The translations under genes were made by a program, and so were the position numbers. Shown in pieces: positions 11,663 through 64,000 of a DNA stretch of 64,000 bases; positions within the stretch are counted from its first letter, which is position 1, and each line of letters opens with the position of its first letter. The stretch lies in assembly GCF_013315695.1 (NCBI RefSeq), contig NZ_CP054353.1, one strand, 5' to 3'. Below the pieces are notes generated by a model. That model was not told the DNA's origin and did not search any database. It saw only the letters and a program-made list of their open reading frames with translations. Source of the DNA: Escherichia coli (GTDB lineage Bacteria > Pseudomonadota > Gammaproteobacteria > Enterobacterales > Enterobacteriaceae).

Positions 11663-11681
11663 TAGATAAATTTTAGGCAAC

Positions 11682-11760
11682 AAAAAACCCACCAACCTTG
11701 AACCGAAATGGCGGGGTTGATGGGCTCCACAAAATGGGGACATCAAAGAAAAGCAGTGGC
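11682..11760 (-). ncRNA. rybB: Sigma-E-dependent small RNA RybB
   Basis: Reverse complement reads gccactgcttttctttgatgtccccattttgtggagcccatcaaccccgccatttcggttcaaggttggtgggtttttt, matching recalled RybB including the terminator hairpin and T6 tail; located between rcdA and ybjL as in K-12. Confidence 0.85.
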
Positions 11761-40973: not shown

Positions 40974-41312
40974 GAAAACCCAGTCCTTGCAAAGATGAAG
41001 TCGAAATGCGCGATGACACACTACTGAAAGCGGAAGGACGAGTAAAGTTGCAATTAAAAGGAAATGTTATGCAAAAGGAGCAGTAGAGTATTCGTTTTCA
41101 TTTAAAGATGTTCTTGCGCTTTAATTACAAACCGCACCGGTGTTGGTGGCGTCAAAATCGCTGAAGCGTTCCCCGAAGGCCGGGGCAGCCCACATGGATG
41201 TGGGCTGAGGGCGCGTCTTACAAGGATAATGAGATGGACGCTCCAGATTTTACGGTATCAAAGTACCAGACTGGATCGTTGCAATACGTCCTGAAAAATT
41301 AGGGGCGTCCAC

Positions 41313-42338
41313 ATGAAAGTATCAACTCTTGGTATCGACCTGGCAAAGAACGTTTTTCAGCTTCATGGTGTCGATCATGAAGGCCATACTATTTTGCGTA
41401 AAAAGCTCACCCGGGCTAAGTTTGTTCAGTTTGTGATTCAACTGGAACCTTGTCTGATTGGCATGGAAGCCTGCTCATCCAGTCATTATTTTGCGCGATT
41501 ATTCACCCGCTATGGTCATGAGGTAAAACTCATACCTCCGCAGTATGTGAAGCCTTATGTGAAAACGAACAAGACGGATGCAGCAGATGCTGAAGCAATC
41601 TGCGAAGCGGTAACCCGTCCGAATATGCGTTTTGTTCAGATAAAAACCGAAGAGCAGCAGGCCGTTTTAGCGTTACACACTGAACGGGGAATACTTATCC
41701 GTGAGCGGATTGCCTGTGCCAATAGTTTAAGAGCCACACTTGCTGAGTTTGGTATTACGATTGCGGCCGGACAAAGCCATTTAACACGTGAGCTGCCAGC
41801 CATTCTGGAGGATGGCGAAAATGGTTTATCTCCCTTTGTCAGAACCAGCATCTACAGACAGTCTAAACATATCCGGGAACTTGAAGAACAAGTTAAACAG
41901 GTAGAAGAAGCTCTGGCCTCCTGGTATAGAACGCAGGAAGCCTGCCAGAGAATGGCCAAGATCCCGGGGGTTGGCATGCTAACGGCCACTTATGTGGTAG
42001 CAGCAGTGGGTAATGCCCGACAATTCAGTACCGCAAAGCAGTTCGCTTCATGGCTGGGGCTGACACCAAAGGAACATTCCAGCGGCGGGAAACAGCAACT
42101 GGGAGGGATCAGCAAACGTGGAGATGGATATTTCCGATACCTGCTGGTTCACGGCGCACGCGCACTTACCGCCTGGGTCAACCGAAACGGCGCGGTTGAG
42201 GAGAATTCCTGGCTTCAGGGACTCCTTGAGCGGAAGCACTACAATGTAGCTGTTGTCGCCATGGCGGCAAAAACAGCGAGGATCATGTGGTCAATGTTGT
42301 CACACAATACTGAATATCAACCTCGGCAGCTCGCCTGA
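41313..42338 (+). CDS. IS110-family transposase/recombinase (RuvC-like DEDD N-domain plus C-terminal Tnp domain)
   Basis: 341-aa ORF starting MKVSTLGIDLAKNVFQLHGVD with conserved acidic residues (GIDLAKN, GMEACSS); typical IS110/IS1111 recombinase length and architecture; agggg SD upstream. Confidence 0.85.
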   Translation: MKVSTLGIDLAKNVFQLHGVDHEGHTILRKKLTRAKFVQFVIQLEPCLIGMEACSSSHYFARLFTRYGHEVKLIPPQYVKPYVKTNKTDAADAEAICEAVTRPNMRFVQIKTEEQQAVLALHTERGILIRERIACANSLRATLAEFGITIAAGQSHLTRELPAILEDGENGLSPFVRTSIYRQSKHIRELEEQVKQVEEALASWYRTQEACQRMAKIPGVGMLTATYVVAAVGNARQFSTAKQFASWLGLTPKEHSSGGKQQLGGISKRGDGYFRYLLVHGARALTAWVNRNGAVEENSWLQGLLERKHYNVAVVAMAAKTARIMWSMLSHNTEYQPRQLA

Positions 42339-42384
42339 CACAAGGTCAGTCAATCTGACGAGGTGCTGAAAAAAAGTTAACGTC

Positions 42385-42565
42385 CTGGTAGGTGCAGGTG
42401 ACTTCAGAAGATGGCAAAACAGGTAAGACCGCAGGCAGGATACACCGAGAGGTAACAAGGGCAAGTTAGCCCGTAGAGGATGATTGGTACCTGCCTGGCG
42501 GATTTCATCATGGTTCGGGATAAAAATCCCATCAGAAACCGGATATATGGCTGCACCTACCCGTT
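42385..42565 (+). ncRNA. Candidate structured RNA in IS110 right flank (possible bridge/guide RNA); strand and ends unverified
   Basis: Perfect 10-bp inverted repeat gtaggtgcag (42388-42397) / ctgcacctac (42551-42560) enclosing a nested ccgcaggcagg (42429-42439) / cctgcctggcgg (42490-42501) pair and a ggga-taaaaa-tccc hairpin; no convincing coding potential. Confidence 0.2.
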
Positions 42566-42839
42566 TTATTACATAACTGAAGAAAGCATTGCATTCCGGG
42601 AGCGTCCATATATGTTACCTCGCGCCCGACCCGGTAGCCGTAAGGGATAAGCCGAGGGCACCGCGCAGCGGCGATTTTGTTCGCCAGAGCCCGGGGGTGC
42701 AGGGGGCGGCGGCGATTGGCCGCCCCCTGCGCGCTCCTTGCGCCAGTGATTATATGAAGCAATGCACATGACAGGAGCGCAACAGGATGAGAGACTGAAC
42801 TATTCTCGTTATTTTCGGACCTGATGACATTAATTAATT

Positions 42840-43146: not shown

Positions 43147-44583
43147 ATGAATCGTGATTCTTTTTATCCAGCCATCGCCTGTTTTCCGCTGTTACTGATG
43201 CTAGCCGGGTGTGCGCCTATGCATGAAACCCGCCAGGCGTTAAGCCAGCAAACACCCGCGGCACAAGTTGACACCGCATTACCCACGGCGCTGAAAAATG
43301 GTTGGCCAGACAGCCAATGGTGGCTGGAGTATCACGATAATCAACTCACCTCATTAATTAATAACGCACTACAGAACGCACCGGATATGCAGGTGGCTGA
43401 ACAGCGCATTCAGCTGGCTGAAGCCCAGGCGAAGGCAGTTGCCACTCAGGATGGTCCACAGCTCGACTTTTCTGCGGATATGGAGCGGCAAAAAATGTCG
43501 GCAGAAGGGTTAATGGGGCCGTTTGCTTTGAACGATCCTGCCGCAGGTACGACCGGTCCGTGGTACACCAACGATACTTTTGGCTTAACGGCGGGCTGGC
43601 ATCTCGATATCTGGGGAAAGACTCGGGCGGAGGTTACTGCTCGCCTCGGTACGGTTAAAGCACGGGCGGCGGAACGCGAGCAAACCCGCCAATTGCTGGC
43701 TGGCAGCGTAGCCCGCCTGTACTGGGAGTGGCAAACCCAGGCGGCGTTAAACACGGTCTTACAGCAAATCGAAAAAGAGCAGAACACCATTATCGCCACC
43801 GATCGCCAGCTATATCAGAACGGGATTACTTCTGCAGTTGAAGGTGTGGAAACCGATATTAATGCCAGCAAAACCCGGCAGCAGCTCAACGATGTCGCGG
43901 GGAAAATGAAAATTATTGAGGCACGGTTAAGTGCGCTCACCAACCACCAGACAAAGTCATTGAAGCTTAAACCGGTCGCGTTGCCGAAAGTGGCAAGTCA
44001 GCTTCCTGATGAACTCGGGTACTCCTTACTGGCCCGGCGGGCAGATTTGCAGGCGGCGCACTGGTACGTTGAGTCATCGTTAAGCACTATTGATGCGGCA
44101 AAAGCGGCATTTTATCCTGACATCAACCTGATGGCCTTTCTGCAACAGGATGCGTTGCACTTAAGCGATCTGTTCCGTCATTCCGCGCAGCAAATGGGCG
44201 TTACGGCAGGCCTGACGCTACCCATTTTCGATAGTGGTCGTCTTAACGCCAATCTCGATATCGCAAAAGCCGAAAGCAACTTGTCTATCGCCAGCTACAA
44301 CAAAGCGGTGGTTGAAGCGGTAAATGACGTGGCGCGGGCGGCCAGCCAGGTTCAGACACTGGCGGAGAAAAACCAGCATCAGGCGCAAATTGAGCACGAT
44401 GCCTTGCGTGTGGTAGGTCTTGCGCAGGCGCGCTTTAACGCGGGCATCATTGCTGGTTCCCGCGTCAGCGAAGCCAGAATCCCCGCGCTGCGTGAGCGGG
44501 CCAATGGCCTGTTATTGCAAGGGCAGTGGCTGGATGCCTCCATTCAACTCACCGGTGCGCTGGGCGGGGGTTACAAACGCTGA
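43147..44583 (+). CDS. mdtQ: Outer-membrane efflux lipoprotein (NodT/OMF family) MdtQ (YohG), apparently intact
   Basis: 478-aa product from internal ATG (MNRDSFYPAIACFPLLLMLAGCAP..., lipobox LAGC); uninterrupted reading frame, unlike the K-12 pseudogene. Confidence 0.85.
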   Translation: MNRDSFYPAIACFPLLLMLAGCAPMHETRQALSQQTPAAQVDTALPTALKNGWPDSQWWLEYHDNQLTSLINNALQNAPDMQVAEQRIQLAEAQAKAVATQDGPQLDFSADMERQKMSAEGLMGPFALNDPAAGTTGPWYTNDTFGLTAGWHLDIWGKTRAEVTARLGTVKARAAEREQTRQLLAGSVARLYWEWQTQAALNTVLQQIEKEQNTIIATDRQLYQNGITSAVEGVETDINASKTRQQLNDVAGKMKIIEARLSALTNHQTKSLKLKPVALPKVASQLPDELGYSLLARRADLQAAHWYVESSLSTIDAAKAAFYPDINLMAFLQQDALHLSDLFRHSAQQMGVTAGLTLPIFDSGRLNANLDIAKAESNLSIASYNKAVVEAVNDVARAASQVQTLAEKNQHQAQIEHDALRVVGLAQARFNAGIIAGSRVSEARIPALRERANGLLLQGQWLDASIQLTGALGGGYKR

Positions 44584-46852: not shown

Positions 46853-47025
46853 AAAGTTCTTTTGCGCTGCATTGCTGGCGTAAATGTCAGCAATGCAGCA
46901 TTTCCTCACGATTCTTCTTTGACGATCGCACTTTTTGCTCGTTATGATGGCGTCGCTAGCCTCAGTAAATCCTTACTCCGGCGGTGCGCAACCCGTGCGC
47001 GTGAACCACTATCTGAATGCTCATC

Positions 47026-55461: not shown

Positions 55462-56193
55462 ATGAAGATGTTGCGCGATCCGCTGTTCTGGCTCATTGCT
55501 CTGTTTGTGGCACTGATTTTCTGGCTGCCTTACAGCCAGCCGCTGTTTGCTGCCTTGTTCCCACAACTGCCACGCCCCGTTTATCAGCAAGAGAGTTTTG
55601 CAGCTCTGGCACTGGCTCATTTCTGGCTGGTGGGAATTTCGAGTTTGTTTGCGGTGATCATTGGTACTGGTGCCGGAATTGCTGTCACTCGCCCTTGGGG
55701 CGCGGAATTTCGTCCACTGGTGGAAACTATTGCCGCCGTTGGACAGACTTTTCCGCCCGTTGCAGTGCTGGCGATTGCCGTTCCGGTGATCGGCTTTGGC
55801 CTGCAACCGGCGATTATCGCCTTGATCCTTTACGGTGTGCTACCCGTCCTGCAGGCGACACTTGCCGGGCTGGGATCGATTGATGCCAGCGTGACCGAAG
55901 TTGCCAAAGGCATGGGAATGAGTCGTGGTCAGCGACTGCGTAAGGTCGAGCTACCGCTGGCGGCTCCGGTGATTCTGGCGGGCGTGCGAACTTCGGTGAT
56001 TATCAACATTGGTACGGCGACGATCGCCTCAACGGTAGGGGCCAGCACGCTGGGTACGCCCATCATCATCGGGCTTAGCGGATTTAATACCGCGTATGTG
56101 ATCCAGGGGGCGTTACTGGTGGCACTGGCGGCGATCATCGCAGACCGCCTGTTTGAAAGGCTGGTGCAGGCGTTCAGCCAGCACGCAAAATAA
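55462..56193 (+). CDS. yehW: ABC transporter permease YehW
   Basis: 243-aa multi-TMS ORF; synteny. Confidence 0.9.
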
Positions 56194-56281
56194 AGGTATA
56201 ACCTGCGAGCATGACGCCACCAATTCCGCCTAACGCCATAAACAGGAACAGGGCGATGACTCCAATTTTAGCTATGCGCAT
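56174..56281 (-). CDS. yohO: Small membrane protein YohO (35 aa)
   Basis: Manual translation [35 protein letters not shown]; below ORF-track cutoff; overlaps the yehW 3' end on the opposite strand. Confidence 0.7.
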
Positions 56282-56340
56282 AATGCACTCCTTATGTTAA
56301 CGAAAGGATTGTACAGTAAAGCGCATTTGTTAACGAATCA

Positions 56341-57030
56341 TTAAATGCCGAGTGGGAAAATATCATGGCCTTGTTCCTGCCAACTGGTGAGTTGCTGCTG
56401 TTGGGCGGAGGTTCGATTTTCACCGCACCACACCAGCAATGTACGGCCTTCGAACAGTTCAGGGCGTAGTTGATTGAGCGAGTGGGCGAGGACATCAATG
56501 CGCCATCCTTGTTGACTGGCAATCCAGCCCTCCAGCCACAGACGGGTGGTATCCTGAATATTCCAGCCAACCACCAGCGCATCTTTACCCTGTTTTTTAC
56601 GTGCCGAAGCCAGACAAATGGCAATGTAGTTGATCAGTACGCCGTCGAGGATCGCCAGCAGCGCCTGGAGAGTCGGTTGTTGGCACTGAAGCCGTCGGCG
56701 CAGTGGAATGAACAGATGTGTGGTGAGTGTCTGGGCGGGGTAATCCTGACCGCGCTCTTTGATCCACGTTCGCAGGCTATGCAGATTGCCGCTTTGCAGG
56801 TAAGTCAGTAATGTTTCTTGCTGATCGCGCCAGCCGTTCTGCACATCAACATTTTCATTACTGAGCAGCATTTTTACTTTGCTGACCTGCACGCCATTGT
56901 CGATCCAGCGTTTGATCTCGCGGATCCGGTCAATATCGGCATCGTTGAACAGCCGATGACCGCCGTCTGTCCGTTGCGGTTTCAGCAATCCGTAACGCCT
57001 CTGCCACGCGCGTAACGTGACAGGGATTAA
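56341..57030 (-). pseudogene. mlrA: mlrA (yehV), MerR-family curli regulator, 5'-truncated by prophage integration
   Basis: Reading frame matches MlrA from about residue 15 (..[30 protein letters not shown]...) to the stop at 56341. Upstream of about 57030 the sequence no longer encodes the MlrA N-terminus (expected ..GEVALLCD) and an integrase gene follows. Confidence 0.8.
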
Positions 57031-57062
57031 GGGTAAACTAACTGATTTTACAAGTTTTTATT

Positions 57063-58349
57063 TTACCCCACTTTCTTATGGGGCATACATGGGACACTTT
57101 CAGATAGTCTTTTGTTAAGGAGTTCTATCTGTTCGTGATTGTTGTCTTTCATCCATGCTCCGTAAACATTGAATACCATTTGTGCGTTTGTGTGGCCCAT
57201 CTGGCTTGCGATAAAACTAGGATTAGCTCCAGCGGCAAGTGACCAGCATGCATAAGTATGCCTGGATTGGTACGATTTTCTGTGTCTCAGACCTGCGTGT
57301 TTTAAGATACTTGTCCATGACTCCCTGATGGAGTCAACCTTATAGTGCGGTCCGGAAAACTGCCGCTGTTTTATTACCTGAGGACTAAAAACAAAAGTGC
57401 ATTTATGCACAGTACTTCTCCCATATTCCCTCTGCTTTACCTCTACAGAATGTTGCTTTCCAAGCATGGTCATTTCCGCCTGACTTTTAAGAGCATCAAT
57501 AGCTGGTTGAACCAGATGAATTGTCCTTCCGGTGCCAGCATCGGTTTTTGGTGGAGTGAATTCGCCAAGTTTTGTATAATTCCTACGGATGGTTATAGTC
57601 CTTGCTTTAAGATCTATATCTTCCCATGCCAGCGATACCAGCTCCCCGTGACGAATACCCGTGTATACAGCGAGAATCCACAGGTTTTTTGTTTGTTGAT
57701 GACGGCAAGCCTCAATAAAACGAATAAATTCGTCACGGGTGAGAGGATCTGGTTTTACCTTGGACTTTTTTAAGGGAGCCAGACCGTTAAATGGGTTTCC
57801 TGAGGTATAACCATTATCTGTTGCAAATTGAAACATTCCAGCTATGGTTGTCATATAGTAGTTTACCGTGACCACTGAGCGCCCTTTTATGGAAGAAGTC
57901 TTTCCATTAGAAAGTTTTTGGTAACCGGTCAACAAATCTCTCCTTACGAAAAGTAAATCCTCTTTTGTTATGGATGAAACCAGTTTTTTTTCACCTAACA
58001 TTGGTAACATGTTTTTAATTACTGACTGGTAACGGTTAAGTGCATTCGCACAAATCTCAATTTTCTTAAGGTCCAACCATTTTTCCGAAAGTGCCTTAAC
58101 GGTTATCTCTCTTTTTCCCAGACCAAAGTGTTTCAGGTTAGGGGAATTAGGGAACTGCGCGGAGTAGTCGAAACTCCCCATTCTGATTGCAAAACAAACG
58201 GAAGTGCGAAGTTCACCAGCGATCTTCCGGTTTTTGGCTGTGTCAGGAACACCGAGGTTTTCTCTGACACGTTTGCCATTATAGTGAAACCATATACGGA
58301 GTGATCCTCCATGGTTTTCAACGCCTGTCGGGTATGATGCGTTACTCAT
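57063..58349 (-). CDS. int: Phage tyrosine integrase
   Basis: 428-aa ORF with C-terminal tyrosine-recombinase catalytic region (..RHTYACWSLAAGANPSFIASQMGHTNAQMVFNVYGAWM..); 3' end about 30 bp from the att junction. Confidence 0.9.
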   Translation of the reverse strand: MSNASYPTGVENHGGSLRIWFHYNGKRVRENLGVPDTAKNRKIAGELRTSVCFAIRMGSFDYSAQFPNSPNLKHFGLGKREITVKALSEKWLDLKKIEICANALNRYQSVIKNMLPMLGEKKLVSSITKEDLLFVRRDLLTGYQKLSNGKTSSIKGRSVVTVNYYMTTIAGMFQFATDNGYTSGNPFNGLAPLKKSKVKPDPLTRDEFIRFIEACRHQQTKNLWILAVYTGIRHGELVSLAWEDIDLKARTITIRRNYTKLGEFTPPKTDAGTGRTIHLVQPAIDALKSQAEMTMLGKQHSVEVKQREYGRSTVHKCTFVFSPQVIKQRQFSGPHYKVDSIRESWTSILKHAGLRHRKSYQSRHTYACWSLAAGANPSFIASQMGHTNAQMVFNVYGAWMKDNNHEQIELLNKRLSESVPCMPHKKVG

Positions 58350-58382
58350 TAAACCTCCCAGACGTCCAGGAGCATTAACAGG

Positions 58383-58637
58383 TTAACCGGAACTTGCATT
58401 TTTGGCACCTGGTTGTTTCTGGTTTTCGATCCATCGCATAATTTCTTCGATGTTGTACAGGCATTCACTGTAGTGCCTCGGATCACCTTCTACAGCGTAA
58501 TGGCGGTATTCTTTTCCCTGCATCCATGACTTTCTTCTTGCCCGCTCAATGGTGCCAGGCTTTAGCCCTGTTGATGCAATGAGGACTCTCTCCGTACACC
58601 ATTTGCTGGGGGTTATCTGATAGATGATTGTCTGCAT
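58383..58637 (-). CDS. xis: Excisionase-like DNA-binding protein
   Basis: 84-aa ORF immediately upstream of int on the same strand; basic winged-helix-like segment (LKPGTIERARRKSW). Confidence 0.65.
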   Translation of the reverse strand: MQTIIYQITPSKWCTERVLIASTGLKPGTIERARRKSWMQGKEYRHYAVEGDPRHYSECLYNIEEIMRWIENQKQPGAKNASSG

Positions 58638-58655
58638 GCCAACCTCATAAAATTT

Positions 58656-58790
58656 TCATCCACGGCAGTGGCACCACACGTCAAACATTCGCTTCACAAC
58701 TTCACGACAGTAGAAGCCGTCAACATCTCGCGTCAGGTCATAGCGATTGCCGTAACGCTGGTGGACCCATCGTTCAAATGCTTTATTCAT
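58656..58790 (-). CDS. Small Cys-containing protein (44 aa), hypothetical
   Basis: Manual translation MNKAFERWVHQRYGNRYDLTRDVDGFYCREVVKRMFDVWCHCRG; fits the tight gene packing between xis and the next ORF; below ORF-track cutoff. Confidence 0.3.
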   Translation of the reverse strand: MNKAFERWVHQRYGNRYDLTRDVDGFYCREVVKRMFDVWCHCRG

Positions 58791-58793
58791 TCT

Positions 58794-59072
58794 TTACTTC
58801 CTTTTTATGGCTCGTAATTTTTTCAGGTGCTTTTCCTGCTCAGTGTCCGCGAGAATTTTGCGGTACTCCTGGTGGTCAATATGTTCGAACAGGCAGTTTA
58901 ACTCACCAATGCGTACCCGCCCGGATCGTCCGTCCATCCGTCGAAAGAACACTGAGTGCTCAGTGATGCGAGTAATCACCACGGGGTATCCGGCTCTGTC
59001 CGTGTATATCTGACCGCGTTGAATCAAAGCGAACATGTGGTTATCCCCATCGACAAATCGAGAACACAACAA
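58794..59072 (-). CDS. Phage hypothetical protein
   Basis: 92-aa ORF in the co-directional early operon. Confidence 0.45.
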   Translation of the reverse strand: MLCSRFVDGDNHMFALIQRGQIYTDRAGYPVVITRITEHSVFFRRMDGRSGRVRIGELNCLFEHIDHQEYRKILADTEQEKHLKKLRAIKRK

Positions 59073-59120
59073 ACGCTGCTGCGAATACCACCCCCAGAGT
59101 TACGATTGCATCAGGCCAGC

Positions 59121-59639
59121 TCATTGATTCACCTCCTGCCTGTCGTCCGGCATTCGCTCACTACAGCTTATCCAACCATCCGGAGTTACCGGAGAGCTGG
59201 TTGACGCTTCCGGGATTTTCCGAAAATTATTGGTTGACGAATCTTTATTTTCCCGAAAGTTTCCGGACTGAAGCATGGCTTCGCGGCAATCGTTCCAGCC
59301 TGTAGCGTATGCAGCCGCTTTGCTGCTGCCTTCAACTGGCGCATCCTGCCAATACATTTCTTCCGGCACTACCGGCGCTGGAGGGGCGGCGTAAATGCCC
59401 TCTATCACTAAATGTTTGCGCTCAAAATCATCTGGCTCTCGATGATATACGTAACTCCAATCACCAAGGTTATCATTGCGCCTGCAACGGAAACCTATCG
59501 GCTCTGCTTCCAGCGATGCCAGAGCAATTCGTGCCAGTTCTTCCGCTTCTTCTGCTGGCAGTACAACGTTGCTACCCGGTCCGTATGTTTCGCGCCACTG
59601 CTTGATTGTCAGCAGTCGCTCTTTGGTAATAGTGATCAT
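59121..59639 (-). CDS. Phage hypothetical protein
   Basis: 172-aa ORF; its start overlaps the stop of the upstream gene by 4 nt. Confidence 0.5.
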   Translation of the reverse strand: MITITKERLLTIKQWRETYGPGSNVVLPAEEAEELARIALASLEAEPIGFRCRRNDNLGDWSYVYHREPDDFERKHLVIEGIYAAPPAPVVPEEMYWQDAPVEGSSKAAAYATGWNDCREAMLQSGNFRENKDSSTNNFRKIPEASTSSPVTPDGWISCSERMPDDRQEVNQ

Positions 59640-60151
59640 GCCGCGTTTCCTTCTTTCTTATTAACAATTACACCGTCATATATTTCATTAAGGTGCCCTC
59701 TCAACTCCATGCGCCTTAATGCAGATAACATGTAATCGCATTCAACCTGCTTATTCCCGGTAAATGGCTTATCGTCAGGATTACCCCAACAGCAATTACC
59801 CCTGGGCCATCCATGTACTTTCCGTACTCTTCCGTTAACAACGTGAAGTAATCCCCAGCCGGGAGGTAAATCCTCAACTGAAATAATTTCCGGCTCACTA
59901 ATAAAGAATCGCCAGTCGCCCATGCCAAGTGAGGGATTTTTACGGAAACGCTTTTTTCTATCTGCCAACAAGTCAGCACGAGAACACTTCGCCTCTATCA
60001 GGCATGATGCTGAATTTCTGAATCCCATAGCATCTGGCTGTTCTCCGGTACTGGTTACAGCAACAAAGCGGTCATGAAAGCAAACCTTGAACCCGTTGCG
60101 CTTAAGGAACTTGTACGCAATCTGACAGAGTTCGTGGTGTGTTAACGCCAT
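59636..60151 (-). CDS. Phage protein with PD-(D/E)XK nuclease-like motif
   Basis: 171-aa ORF containing ..GEQPDAMGF..(11 aa)..IEAKCS.., a PD-x(n)-E-x-K pattern; assignment is by motif only. Confidence 0.4.
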   Translation of the reverse strand: MALTHHELCQIAYKFLKRNGFKVCFHDRFVAVTSTGEQPDAMGFRNSASCLIEAKCSRADLLADRKKRFRKNPSLGMGDWRFFISEPEIISVEDLPPGWGLLHVVNGRVRKVHGWPRGNCCWGNPDDKPFTGNKQVECDYMLSALRRMELRGHLNEIYDGVIVNKKEGNAA

Positions 60152-60152
60152 A

Positions 60153-60752
60153 TCACTCTCCTTTGATGCGAATGTCAGCGACGCGTAATGCGTGTTCTAG
60201 GTCAATCAGGTAAAGCCAACTGCCATTTTCTTTAGGTATCATGACTTGTCGCTCATCTGCATTTATGGGGTGTCCATATCGAAGGTCGTAGCGAGTCGGT
60301 AATTGAACTTCCCGCGCTTCCAGTTCAGCAATACGCTTGCACCCATCAGAGATAACTCCCTCATAATACTCGCGCTGCTCGTTGAGTTTTGATTTTGTCT
60401 CCTCAAGCTCAACGCGCAGCTTCCCTACCGTTAGCGCAATATCCTCGTTCTCCTGGTCGCGGCGTTTGATGTATTGCTGGTTTCTTTCCTGTTCATCCAG
60501 CAGTGCCAGCACGGTAGCCGGGTTAGCCTCTGCTATGAATTCAGCGTTTGCATAAGCCTGAGCATCTGTTTCAACCAGGCAGTTAACGTGACATTCTGCA
60601 ATTACGCCACCGGGTTCTCCTTTCCATTTTTGACAAACAAAAACTCCTGTTAAATTGCCGTGTTGGTTAACAGATGTATGCCCTACGATGTAGCTTCCTT
60701 TAGTTGCTTTCTCTGCCTTTTCACGCAGTACCTGATAGTTAATGTTGCTCAC
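60153..60752 (-). CDS. Phage hypothetical protein with coiled-coil region
   Basis: 199-aa ORF; start overlaps the upstream stop; central charged heptad-like region (LRVELEETKSKLNEQREYYE). Confidence 0.5.
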   Translation of the reverse strand: MSNINYQVLREKAEKATKGSYIVGHTSVNQHGNLTGVFVCQKWKGEPGGVIAECHVNCLVETDAQAYANAEFIAEANPATVLALLDEQERNQQYIKRRDQENEDIALTVGKLRVELEETKSKLNEQREYYEGVISDGCKRIAELEAREVQLPTRYDLRYGHPINADERQVMIPKENGSWLYLIDLEHALRVADIRIKGE

Positions 60753-60988
60753 TGGTTGCCTCCTTTACGGATCTGCGCTGCGATGCACGAAAAAAAAGAC
60801 TTTCGCGTATGACTGTTAAGAGCTGGCGCGAACGCCGCGTTAAGAACGGCGGCATCACAGCCGTCATCGATATAGAGCGCAATTTTTTTCTCCAGGCGTG
60901 CTTTGGCTTCCTGCAACTGCATATCCCGGCACGCACGCGGGATATACTCAGCAATTTGAGCGATAGATTTTTCGTTCTGTTTAAACAT
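60749..60988 (-). CDS. Phage hypothetical protein
   Basis: 79-aa ORF chosen over the overlapping 120-aa alternative (60739..61101) because it keeps the 4-8 nt start/stop overlap chain of the operon. Confidence 0.4.
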   Translation of the reverse strand: MFKQNEKSIAQIAEYIPRACRDMQLQEAKARLEKKIALYIDDGCDAAVLNAAFAPALNSHTRKSFFSCIAAQIRKGGNQ

Positions 60989-61184
60989 GCTTCACCTCGA
61001 TAGGCTTGATGGTATCGATCAGCAGTCGGCGGCGAGTATTTTCTGCAAAGTGGCGGCGTCCGGTTTCTTTGTGGTAAAACTCGTTTTTTCCGACGACCCA
61101 CATCCGCTTTGTCTGGTGCAGTTTTTTTACCTGCGGACCGTCTCGGGTGATAACAATTCCTGTATGAGTTTTTATCACGCTCAT
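60981..61184 (-). CDS. Phage hypothetical protein
   Basis: 67-aa basic ORF within the overlap chain. Confidence 0.4.
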   Translation of the reverse strand: MSVIKTHTGIVITRDGPQVKKLHQTKRMWVVGKNEFYHKETGRRHFAENTRRRLLIDTIKPIEVKHV

Positions 61185-61543
61185 TTTTTATTCTTCGGTG
61201 CTTTCGGCATTACTGCCCAGTGAGTGATATTGACGTTTTCAAGGTCCCCGACCTGAAATGTCCACAGCCATTCTCCGGTTTCTTTTTGTCCCCAGGTGTA
61301 CCAGAGAGAACGCCAGCCAATTAGCCAGCCTTCTCCGTTAGCATCAAATAACAGAACACTTTCATTTGCTGGTGGCAGTTCAGCTGACACTGGTATTATT
61401 TTGTTTTCCAGTGCCGCACATTTAGCTTCAAGCGCGTCGAATTTACGTAACAGGTACTCAGCATTTGTTTCATTCACTTTCAGATCTCGCGGTACACATT
61501 TCCCGCGAAGAAACCCTTCCATTTCGAAAACATTCATGCGCAT
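61181..61543 (-). CDS. Phage protein, DUF551-like
   Basis: 120-aa ORF with Trp-rich C-terminal segment (GWLIGWRSLWYTWGQKETGEWLW) resembling DUF551 phage proteins as recalled. Confidence 0.45.
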   Translation of the reverse strand: MRMNVFEMEGFLRGKCVPRDLKVNETNAEYLLRKFDALEAKCAALENKIIPVSAELPPANESVLLFDANGEGWLIGWRSLWYTWGQKETGEWLWTFQVGDLENVNITHWAVMPKAPKNKK

Positions 61544-62139
61544 TTGCGTAACTCCGATAAATCGTTAAAACGTTCCATAAACATCCCGTAGGCATGACCC
61601 GGTGCCAGTGGAATCACGTTGAACATCTCTGTTGCCGGGATGCCTTCCAGTACTGGCCAGAAAGAGCCATCATCAAGCCCGAGATCGCGGCGTTCGGTTG
61701 CCAGCATGATGAGATCGGCATATTTCACAGGCGTGCGCATAACCGGGGGTAACCCGTATTTCTCACGGATTACGGCGTCTATTTTTTCTTCCATCCGTTT
61801 ATAGTCAGGAAGAAGGCGTTTCAGTGGAGCGGGAATATCCTGGCAATACGCTTCTGTTGCATCATGCATTAACGCTTCAAAAGCAAATTCCTGCGGCACC
61901 AGCTGGCTGCAAAGCACCGCATGCTGGGCGACACTGTAGAAGTGTGAAAGATGTCCTGCAAAGCGACAGATATTTGAAAGGGAAACCGCGATATCGTTAA
62001 TCACGATGTCGTCTTTATTTATCTTGTCATAATAAAAATGCTTCCCGGAAAAAGTTTTAATAAATGACATTTCGTTCTCCACTTTATATGCGCTGCACCG
62101 CTCTGAATTTTGATTGCAGCAATCCAGCCCATTTGACAT
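61534..62139 (-). CDS. HD-domain phosphohydrolase (YfbR-like 5'-deoxynucleotidase family)
   Basis: 201-aa ORF with H...HD metal-binding signature (..AGHLSHFYSVAQHAVL...LMHDATEAY..). Confidence 0.55.
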   Translation of the reverse strand: MSNGLDCCNQNSERCSAYKVENEMSFIKTFSGKHFYYDKINKDDIVINDIAVSLSNICRFAGHLSHFYSVAQHAVLCSQLVPQEFAFEALMHDATEAYCQDIPAPLKRLLPDYKRMEEKIDAVIREKYGLPPVMRTPVKYADLIMLATERRDLGLDDGSFWPVLEGIPATEMFNVIPLAPGHAYGMFMERFNDLSELRKCA

Positions 62140-62160
62140 GGGATGATTGCTGCAATTTTT

Positions 62161-63078
62161 TTAAGTTGTTGGATTTTGGCTTTTATCTTCTTTGTAAGAA
62201 AGAAGGTCACACATCAAATTAACTACCTTGCTGAATTGGAAAAGGTCAGCGCCAGTCTGATGACGCCACTGGAATGCTTTATCATCTTCATCATTAAATG
62301 TCTGAGATTGAGTATTGATGCGCGAAAAATGGAAATTTTCGGTAAGAATGAAGGTCACACCGCAACCGGATAACTCCATTTTATCAGCAGTGAAACTACT
62401 ACTAAGGCTATCGGCCAGTTCGCTTTGAATTGACTCATGCTCAGCTGAGTAGCGAATAATTTCCTTTTGATCTGCGTAGCGTGATAGCTGAATATAATTT
62501 CCGACAGTGAATCCTTCAAATGCATTGGCTGCACCATTGATGTAGTTATTCAGGCGTGTAGTCAGTCCATTCTTGATATCACTGATGTTGATTGTTTCTG
62601 TTTTCACTGAACCGACAACCTTAATCAGCATTGCGCATACCATACCGGCTATTATTTTATTGGTTGTGTTGATTACCAATAATTTCTCATCAGTGCTGTA
62701 CAATGCAAGAATCAGAGTAGACTTAACAAATGCCTGTTTGCATAGATCTACTCGTACGTTATCAATAATGGCCAGTCGTTCGGCACGCTTTAATTTATTC
62801 CCGGACATATTTTCGGTTGTTTGGATTCGAGAATTAGCTTCTTTCATGACGACATGTCGGGGAATTATTTTCTGATCATGACGGATTACCATTGCGTACC
62901 CACCAGATATCGGAGTTACCAGTTCACCAGTGACAGGATTCTCTACAAAAGAGGACCGTGAAAATTCTGTTTCCCCGATTTCAGAATAAGGGAGTTCGAG
63001 AAGATGACCTTCAATAGCCTGTATACTAGGTAATGTTGCTCGGTACACAATTGCGTTACGAAATTTTGGTAATTTCAT
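62161..63078 (-). CDS. RdgC-like recombination-associated protein
   Basis: About 305 aa from ATG at 63078 (MKLPKFRNAIVYRATLP...) with aggaaa SD; N-terminal pattern and length resemble bacterial RdgC (MLWFKNLMVYRL...). The ORF-track 5' extension to 63279 is likely untranslated. Confidence 0.5.
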   Translation of the reverse strand: MKLPKFRNAIVYRATLPSIQAIEGHLLELPYSEIGETEFSRSSFVENPVTGELVTPISGGYAMVIRHDQKIIPRHVVMKEANSRIQTTENMSGNKLKRAERLAIIDNVRVDLCKQAFVKSTLILALYSTDEKLLVINTTNKIIAGMVCAMLIKVVGSVKTETINISDIKNGLTTRLNNYINGAANAFEGFTVGNYIQLSRYADQKEIIRYSAEHESIQSELADSLSSSFTADKMELSGCGVTFILTENFHFSRINTQSQTFNDEDDKAFQWRHQTGADLFQFSKVVNLMCDLLSYKEDKSQNPTT

Positions 63079-63765
63079 TCTATTTTCCTCTGCACAATGT
63101 ATTAGTTTCTCCACAAAACAGAGAAGAACACCTGCGGTGGCAGCCGCCCGGATGGATTGGGTTATGAGCCCGTCGTCCGGTGATGCTCTTCTCTGTTTTG
63201 TAAAAAGAGCGGTACCAGCCGGAAGCAAGTGTACAAACTGGTACCGCCAAAGCAGTGGCTGTTGTGGTGGGGTTGTCACTCAGGCGTATGGTCAACCTGA
63301 CAACCCGGTGTCCTCAACGGGGAAAGAGTAACCCCGCCATACTTACCGCCGCGCCATTTCGCGGATTACCACAACGCTGAGAGCACTTAGCCAGTTACGG
63401 CACCACACTTTGTCGCGGTTCCATAAATGCCCTCATCGTTGCACCCTGGTCTCTTCCCAGGCGTCAAACCGAATCGCCACGCTGGTTAGGCGTCTTATCA
63501 GCATCCTCATTGACTTGCACATTCCGGCTATCTGGTTTGTTTGCCCGAGCAAGGAGTGGATTGTCCCCTTTAACGTCCCCAGACCGCTAACGACGCATGT
63601 GCCATACGCCGTGTTACAACCAAATTTTGTTAGTACCTTGTTTGTAGGTCTGGAGAGAAAGATAAAATGAAGTTGCGCATTATGCAAGTGTTTTATTGCG
63701 AGATAAGCAATTTGGTGGGTAATGAAAAGCCACCTTCTGGTGGCTAATTGATGTTGAGGTAGGGG

Positions 63766-64000
63766 GTTAATTGTGTCGCTTAAGGGTCTGTGACTGACTG
63801 ATTAAGACCTTTCCAAAGACCATAAACCGGTGTTCGTTTTCGCTGGTAATTCCCCATTCGCGGTAAATCTGATTATCAGAAATTACCAGCAGTTTATCAG
63901 GTATCATTTGCAGTCGTTTGACGTAAATTTTATCATCAAAACCAAATACATATATACCATCCCCATCAAACTGATTGATACTGATATCAACGAAGATGAG
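63766..64000 (-). CDS. Partial CDS (C-terminal 78 codons; start lies beyond right window edge): S24 LexA/CI-like peptidase domain, candidate phage repressor
   Basis: Manual translation ..LIFVDISINQFDGDGIYVFGFDDKIYVKRLQMIPDKLLVISDNQIYREWGITSENEHRFMVFGKVLISQSQTLKRHN*, resembling the C-terminal autocleavage domain of CI/LexA-type repressors. Confidence 0.4.

Follow-up and report, generated by a model that had tools for sequence, protein, structure and literature searches.

The last part of the 64,000-nucleotide stretch of Escherichia coli DNA analysed here (contig NZ_CP054353.1 of assembly GCF_013315695.1; hereafter the window) is very probably the attL-side end of a lambdoid prophage that was integrated by its integrase (Int) at a 20-bp core within mlrA, also named yehV, splitting that gene. 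The 3′ part of mlrA, which encodes a regulator with a MerR-type helix-turn-helix (HTH), lies directly beside an attachment (att) core, a short phage arm and the genes of a tyrosine integrase and an excisionase (Xis). About 7 kb of prophage falls inside the window, of which about 5.4 kb are lambdoid early genes that follow xis, up to a cI-like repressor. The features at the junction, with names given by the Prokaryotic Genome Annotation Pipeline (PGAP) where available, are as follows.

56341-57024, minus strand: 3′ fragment of mlrA (mlrA′), codons 17-243 and the stop codon, found by translation, BLAST to K-12 mlrA, Pfam and NCBIfam
56341-57027, minus strand: coding sequence (CDS) called over mlrA′ by PGAP; the corresponding calls are 911-1612 in locus L007 and 911-1597 in locus L008
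57005-57024, minus strand: attL core CCTGTCACGTTACGCGCGTG, 20 bp, given in mlrA sense, mlrA nt 49-68
57025-57062: phage arm on the int side, P′-like, the 38 bp that separate the core from the int stop codon
57075-57100, minus strand: candidate arm-type Int-binding repeats AAAGTGTCCCATGTATGCCCCATAAG, overlapping the last int codons
57063-58349, minus strand: int, intact gene of a 428-aa tyrosine integrase of the VT1-Sakai/yehV type (Pfam, PHROG)
58383-58637, minus strand: xis, gene of an 84-aa excisionase (PHROG 539, E = 1.5e-37; named xisR by PGAP)

Translated on the minus strand, 56341-57120 reads as MlrA from P17-V-T-L-R-A-W onward, and in a three-way alignment the ungapped identity to mlrA stops at 57024/57025, which is codon 16/17. 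Gapped BLAST to mlrA of K-12 MG1655 (locus L003) carries the homology to window position 57030, or mlrA nt 43. The int stop codon at 57063-57065 lies 32 bp past that position and 38 bp past the att core. A first-pass annotation, made from the letters of the DNA alone, had described a break in mlrA followed by an integrase gene and then an excisionase gene, and translation, BLAST, Pfam and PHROG recover all of these elements at the places it gave; its position for the break, about codon 15, was right to within a codon or two, the exact break being at codon 16/17. Its reading of the junction as a prophage integrated at mlrA/yehV is borne out by a core that is the att site of VT1-Sakai and by an Int and an Xis that are 98% and 99% identical to those of that phage. 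Its statement of a known integration site with a known consequence is likewise on record, as both occupied mlrA and the loss of curli have been published (PMC3874044, PMC5931665). The junction is a fixed structural feature of the DNA and does not rest on statistics.

The core is common to attB of K-12, attL of the window and attR of E. coli MSB1_4I (NZ_LR898874.1), a genome from a human rectal swab in Australia that is not labelled as STEC (E. coli that makes Shiga toxin), and it occurs once in the window. It is also the sequence of both misc_recomb att sites of VT1-Sakai in GenBank AP000400.1, a record which annotates yehV as split by prophage insertion. The Stx2a_1447 provirus record opens with exactly the 38 bp of this phage arm, and the VT1-Sakai sequence is near-identical. 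A direct repeat, AAAGTGTCCCAT(G/A)(T/C)ATGCCCCATA, is present in both att arms, with one copy region at 57075-57100 of the window; in the attR arm of MSB1_4I the same repeat stands in direct orientation, with ATGCCCCATA twice, starting 110 bp past the core (L002 21331-21366). We regard these repeats as candidate arm-type Int sites. The junction also answers to the published diagnostic polymerase chain reaction (PCR), which uses the Shaikh and Tarr primers F and B with the sequences and product sizes quoted in PMC3874044: the left-junction product obtained in silico is 824 bp (56711-57534), exactly as published. Primer A, which lies in the 5′ part of mlrA, was not found in the window by in-silico PCR, and on K-12 the A/B pair amplifies 340 bp. 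For the right junction, the published primer E has no match in MSB1_4I, and the right end of the MSB1_4I prophage therefore differs from that of the O157 Stx1 phage.

Int and Xis lie directly inside attL, as they do in prophages of the VT1-Sakai type. Int is identical to VT1-Sakai Int at 420 of 428 residues and to Stx2a_1447 Int at 422 of 428, and 83 of the 84 residues of Xis agree with VT1-Sakai Xis. Pfam finds Arm-DNA-bind_2 at residues 7-70 of Int, a weak SAM-like match at 83-131 and Phage_integrase (PF00589) at 203-396, and PHROG 1 (integrase) is matched at E = 5e-83. Matches to structures in the PDB are remote (Tn1549 Int, E=1e-7; lambda Int, E ~2e-3) and were used for motif positions only. 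By alignment with Tn1549 Int, residues R233, K268, R363, H386 and Y396 fall on the catalytic motifs that define a tyrosine recombinase, and Tyr360 replaces the usual first His of the HxxR motif. No NCBIfam family scored above its cut-off for Int, and NCBIfam gave no match whatever for Xis. According to the literature the integrase of Sp15, which is of the same sequence type as the window Int, is functional, and Sp15/VT1-Sakai excises both spontaneously and after induction (Asadulghani et al., as cited in PMC5931665).

The remainder of such an element can be followed in MSB1_4I. The window is colinear with this genome at 99.989% identity over 1-36274, 99.968% over 36200-57998 and 99.983% over 57990-64000, and the 7.8 kb from 56200 to 64000 are 100% identical to it, barring a 1.2-kb insertion in MSB1_4I. 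At these identities MSB1_4I is a near-clonal relative of the window genome. In MSB1_4I the insertion sequence (IS) ISKpn26, which is IS5-like, splits int at the window-equivalent position ~57990-57998 (L001 21799-22991), whereas int of the window is intact; the broken int of MSB1_4I is a derived state in which the prophage is immobilised. The MSB1_4I element runs from attL at 3391250-69 to attR at 3341200-19, a length of 50.0 kb with the IS and ~48.8 kb without it, and its attR consists of the duplicated core and a 22-codon 5′ stub of mlrA (ATG...GCG TGA) beside btsS. Its gene order starts with int, xis, early accessory genes, a yfdR-like gene, an RdgC-like gene, an XRE/cI-like gene, a cro-like gene and YmfL (cII-like), and continues with Rha antirepressors, an O-like gene, PerC, Dam, a LexA-like gene, RusA, KilA-N, DUF968 and Q. 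After Q come tRNA-Met, tRNA-Arg, tRNA-Arg, a nanS-p-type esterase, holin, lysozyme and Rz, then the head genes (terminase, portal, protease, decoration protein and major capsid protein), a lambda-type tail (tube, G/T, tape measure, M, L, K, I and J), Lom, a tail fibre, a DinI-like gene and attR. The prophage visible in the window consists of the same genes, from int through the 3′ end of the cI-like gene, and from MSB1_4I we infer that the element of the window genome is a ~49-kb lambda-like prophage with a long-tail morphogenesis module.

The arrangement is very probably the product of site-specific recombination, mediated by Int, between the attP site of the phage and the identical 20-bp core in codons 17-23 of mlrA. 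The promoter and codons 1-22 would then remain at attR, beyond the window, running into a phage TGA stop, and codons 17-243 would remain at attL, adjoining the 3′ end of int. Because the promoter and codons 1-22 are parted from codons 17-243, full-length MlrA could not be made, and csgD activation, curli and cellulose would be expected to fall. The core is duplicated exactly, and excision by Int and Xis would therefore rebuild wild-type mlrA; joining the left side of attR to the right side of attL in silico yields a 243-aa MlrA with zero differences from that of K-12, which is the restoration expected of active lysogeny.

An alternative that we regard as unlikely, though it is the best of the competing explanations, is a decayed cryptic prophage that neither excises nor makes particles, so that mlrA would be permanently rather than reversibly inactivated. 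Decay would be consistent with the DUF551, Ea22-like and hypothetical genes that PGAP flags as incomplete or frameshifted, and with the ISKpn26-broken int of MSB1_4I, which suggests a lineage that tolerates or selects immobilisation. However, the flagged genes are non-essential early accessory genes, and the MSB1_4I lysis, packaging, head and tail modules are complete. Moreover, both att cores are exact, and int and xis of the window are of full length, with 98-99% identity to their counterparts in Sp15/VT1-Sakai, a prophage whose excision is reported in PMC5931665.

The prophage split at mlrA leaves a remnant that is readily mistaken for the gene. Full-length MlrA has the domains MerR_1 (4-72), MlrA_helical (81-155) and MlrA_C (162-238); mlrA′ is without the promoter, the ribosome-binding site, the start codon and residues 1-16 of the MerR-type HTH, and thus retains neither the complete N-terminal HTH nor the start codon and promoter of its own that a functional MlrA would need. 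In the minus-strand frame there is no ATG, GTG or TTG between the in-frame upstream stop and P17, and the first in-frame canonical start in mlrA′ is a TTG at 56988, codon 29. PGAP nevertheless names mlrA′ "HTH-type transcriptional regulator MlrA", with 228 or 233 aa and an ATC or ATT start, and gives it a protein accession and no pseudogene flag in all three genomes inspected (MSB1_4I, O157:H7 BB24-1 and O22:H8 RM10809-3). It treats the remnant as a normal gene because the remnant scores 511 bits against the NF011617 equivalog cut-off of 417 in NCBIfam, even though only profile positions 17-243 are matched. Inactivation of mlrA by phage would hence escape gene-presence screens in up to 457 genomes, the number in which we find this junction (see below). 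Two other constructions of the locus were considered and ruled out: an in-frame int-mlrA′ fusion, since int terminates in TAA and the two genes occupy different frames, and a replacement mlrA 5′ end supplied by the phage, since a stop lies 12 codons upstream of codon 17 with no start between. On the chromosomal side, the small membrane-protein gene yohO (35 aa, 56174-56281, minus strand) sits between mlrA′ and yehW and overlaps the 3′ end of yehW, which is on the opposite strand.

The consequence of an occupied mlrA has been described in some depth. The gene is occupied in 53 of 55 O157:H7 strains and in 4 of 19 non-O157 STEC strains, and the prophage in it limits curli and biofilm (PMC3874044, PMC5931665). 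With mlrA supplied in trans, the O103 and O113 strains, two of the four non-O157 carriers, regained curli and bound Congo red again (PMC3874044). Native mlrA is regenerated by excision, either spontaneous or induced by sulfamethoxazole-trimethoprim (SMX-TM), in a small fraction of cells, and cured cells are rarely recovered (PMC5931665); in strain PA20, excision led to strong curli (Uhlich et al. 2016, as cited in PMC5931665). By analogy with these strains, the window genome should show a loss or strong reduction of MlrA-dependent csgD activation, and with it of curli and cellulose, and as long as the prophage stays in place the strain is probably poor at making curli and at biofilm that depends on csgD. 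Both the phenotype and the mechanism, in which site-specific integration splits the gene and excision restores it, are thus already published, and a near-identical locus is already in RefSeq.

Whether the remnant could still serve as a regulator bears directly on this prediction. We think it improbable that mlrA remains functional through a 215-228-aa MlrA, made from a non-canonical start with read-through from int, that supports curli. The normal MlrA CDS that PGAP calls in three of three genomes and the score above the equivalog cut-off would both favour such a product. So would the promoter/terminator scan of 56200-59200, which predicted no terminator-like site on the minus strand between int and mlrA′; its counts were near those of shuffled controls, and it lends weak support only to possible read-through. 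A terminator-free gap is compatible with the published run-off transcription of distal mlrA, which rises after SOS induction by a log2 fold change of ~3 (PMC5931665). However, csgD was not raised by expression of the distal fragment, and recombinant truncated forms of MlrA, although they had some Congo-red affinity, failed to restore biofilm (PMC5931665). Strains that carry the insertion have a curli deficiency that full-length mlrA rescues (PMC3874044). In the remnant, translation is annotated from ATC or ATT, no canonical start comes before codon 29, and the missing residues 1-16 are the beginning of the MerR HTH.

Several observations weigh against a split gene, restorable by excision, as the full account of this locus and of its phenotype. 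Partial activity has been reported for the truncated distal MlrA that arises from run-off (PMC5931665), mlrA failed to rescue two O145 strains that carry the insertion, and curli has further requirements, among them rpoS and motility (PMC3874044). The attR site, the late genes and the stx status are taken from the sister genome MSB1_4I, and for the window genome they are predictions. With three early genes flagged by PGAP as incomplete or frameshifted, particle production is not assured. These points temper our confidence in the phenotype and in the mobility of the element; we still hold that a lambdoid prophage integrated at the 20-bp core has split mlrA. MlrA has a role together with the DgcM/PdeR module of cyclic di-GMP signalling. 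More speculatively, in a non-O157, stx-negative lineage the mlrA prophage might be a reversible curli switch that ISKpn26 locks in the OFF state in MSB1_4I, or an HTH-less MlrA from read-through might engage DgcM/PdeR; we give such ideas only a slim chance of being right.

The integrase and att site used here are those of toxin-carrying phages. Neither stx1A/B of VT1-Sakai nor stx2A/B of Stx2a_1447 has a blastn or tblastn match in the window or in the MSB1_4I prophage. In MSB1_4I the flanks of the stx2 cassette adjoin with a 4-bp gap, and the 1.33-kb stxAB interval is gone (L001 39941-40434): the alignment of L001 39688-39979 covers the tRNAs and ends 54 bp short of stx2A, and that of L001 39984-40216 begins 42 bp past stx2B. 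The tRNA-to-nanS-p interval is 492 bp. The stx locus of MSB1_4I is thus empty, and the prophage of the window genome is predicted to be stx-negative as well. A Stx-converting phage whose stx1 or stx2 lies past the window end, downstream of Q, as might be suspected from an Int and att shared with VT1-Sakai (stx1) and Stx2a_1447/WGPS2 (stx2a) and from best phage-database matches to the 7 kb that are Stx phages (57% coverage, 95% identity), is very hard to reconcile with a near-clonal human rectal-swab isolate without STEC label that is 100% identical over the phage part of the window and lacks stx by annotation, blastn and tblastn, with stxAB precisely missing. The first-pass annotation had warned that toxin carriage could not be told from the window, an apt caution that MSB1_4I, with a full-length prophage, both att sites and no stx, now narrows; it had also allowed for an int-xis block that is a mere remnant, which the full-length MSB1_4I prophage, with its attR and mlrA 5′ stub, makes unlikely. 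A Stx-phage-type integrase and att site do not imply toxin carriage, and the "occupied yehV" state typical of O157:H7 also occurs in an isolate from the human gut, where the occupant is related to Stx phages but carries no toxin.

The early region of the prophage fills the window from xis to its end.

58656-61543, minus strand: early-left accessory genes, from the open reading frame (ORF) list, PHROG and PGAP names in MSB1_4I
61534-62070, minus strand: yfdR-like 5′-deoxynucleotidase (PHROG 318, E=4.8e-111; PGAP)
62161-63078, minus strand: RdgC-like recombination-associated protein (PHROG 724, E=5e-76; PGAP)
63767-64000, minus strand: 3′ part of the gene for a cI-like (XRE family) repressor, which runs off the end of the window

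The accessory block holds a small ORF (phrog_3871), DUF4222, DUF551, phrog_9263, an Ea22-like gene, two small ORFs and phrog_583; the genes that PGAP flags as incomplete or frameshifted in MSB1_4I, where the sequence is identical to the window, are DUF551, one Ea22-like and one hypothetical gene. At the position in MSB1_4I equivalent to the cut repressor gene, PGAP annotates a 693-nt XRE-family regulator, then cro-like and cII-like genes, and the position is syntenic with the "repressor protein CI" of Stx2a_1447. The RdgC-like protein matches the NCBIfam RdgC models, yet below their cut-offs. Its gene occupies the slot where most related prophages have a YfdQ-family gene, a mosaic replacement in the early-left region. 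Rfam, run over the whole window at gathering thresholds, gave no match in 56-64 kb; its two matches, RybB and the Peptidase-S11 motif, lie outside this part (see below).

The junction is widespread among sequenced E. coli. We searched 5,426 complete genomes with a 200-bp probe centred on attL, requiring full coverage, and with a matching probe on K-12 attB. The attL junction is present in 457 genomes (~8%), in 67 of them at an identity of at least 99%, and the intact attB probe is fully covered in 4,944. Together the two probes cover all but ~25 genomes, and one Int/att system therefore explains nearly all disruption at this point in mlrA. O157:H7 makes up most of a sample of 60 drawn systematically from the 457 attL genomes; the others include O55:H7, O22:H8 and E110019, and pig, chicken and human isolates not labelled STEC. 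At least 80% of the 7.8 kb from the window is shared by only 11 genomes. The early region has the mosaic make-up expected for lambdoid phages.

Several features elsewhere in the window are worth recording. A transposase of the IS110 family at ~41313-42338, with the junction at ~41000-42612, joins lysO (with hcp, hcr and poxB) to yohP and mdtQ. In K-12 the lysO region lies at ~0.91 Mb and yohP/mdtQ at ~2.23 Mb, with dusC there. This is consistent with the junction being one end of a ~1.3-Mb inversion about symmetric around the terminus, and MSB1_4I has the same IS110 lysO-yohP junction. The mdtQ gene (~43147-44583, plus strand) is an intact outer-membrane protein gene in the MSB1_4I annotation and a pseudogene in K-12 MG1655. 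By Rfam, a Peptidase-S11 motif lies at 46941-47021 on the plus strand (72.8 bits against a gathering threshold of 34.8), directly upstream of pbpG, the gene of a D-alanyl-D-alanine endopeptidase, and the small RNA RybB (RF00110, 104 bits) lies at 11679-11757 on the minus strand.

Judged by its att site, Int and Xis, layout and diagnostic-PCR product, the window element belongs to the VT1-Sakai-type lambdoid prophages at mlrA/yehV. VT1-Sakai, also known as Sp15 and corresponding to CP-933V of EDL933, is the Stx1 prophage in yehV/mlrA of O157:H7; it has the same 20-bp core, the same insertion point in mlrA and the same layout of xis-int-attL-mlrA′, and the MSB1_4I prophage further resembles it in the DinI-like gene beside attR and in the lambda-like tail genes. 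Unlike the MSB1_4I prophage, VT1-Sakai has stx1AB, and its early region is of the lambda N/cI/O/P type; the immunity and replication regions of the two differ, and nucleotide similarity to VT1-Sakai spans only 44% of the phage part of the window.

Stx2a_1447 and Stx2a_WGPS2 (Sawaravirus), Stx2a phages from O157:H7 that use the same integrase, are the best match (57% of the 7 kb at 95%). The early order of Stx2a_1447 is syntenic with that of MSB1_4I (cI, cro, cII-like, antirepressor, O-like, Dam, LexA-like, RusA, KilA and Q), and in both, three phage tRNAs, nanS-p and the lysis genes lie downstream, the tRNAs being annotated as Ile-Arg-Arg in Stx2a_1447 and Met-Arg-Arg in MSB1_4I. In place of the stx2AB cassette of Stx2a_1447 (L005 17315-18649), the MSB1_4I prophage has 4 bp. 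The accessory early genes are partly unlike those of Stx2a_1447, for example with an RdgC-like gene here against YfdQ there. BP-4795, an Stx1 phage, and Escherichia phage PhiR5_1 have the int-xis-early-left block in common with the window, the former with 35% coverage and 95.9% identity and the latter with 47% and 98.3%, a likeness confined to the left arm in a comparison of that arm alone. The comK prophage of Listeria is a known example of active lysogeny, in which a prophage interrupts a host gene and restores it on excision. Like that prophage, the element at mlrA lies inside a regulatory gene, and its precise excision in silico rebuilds an intact ORF.

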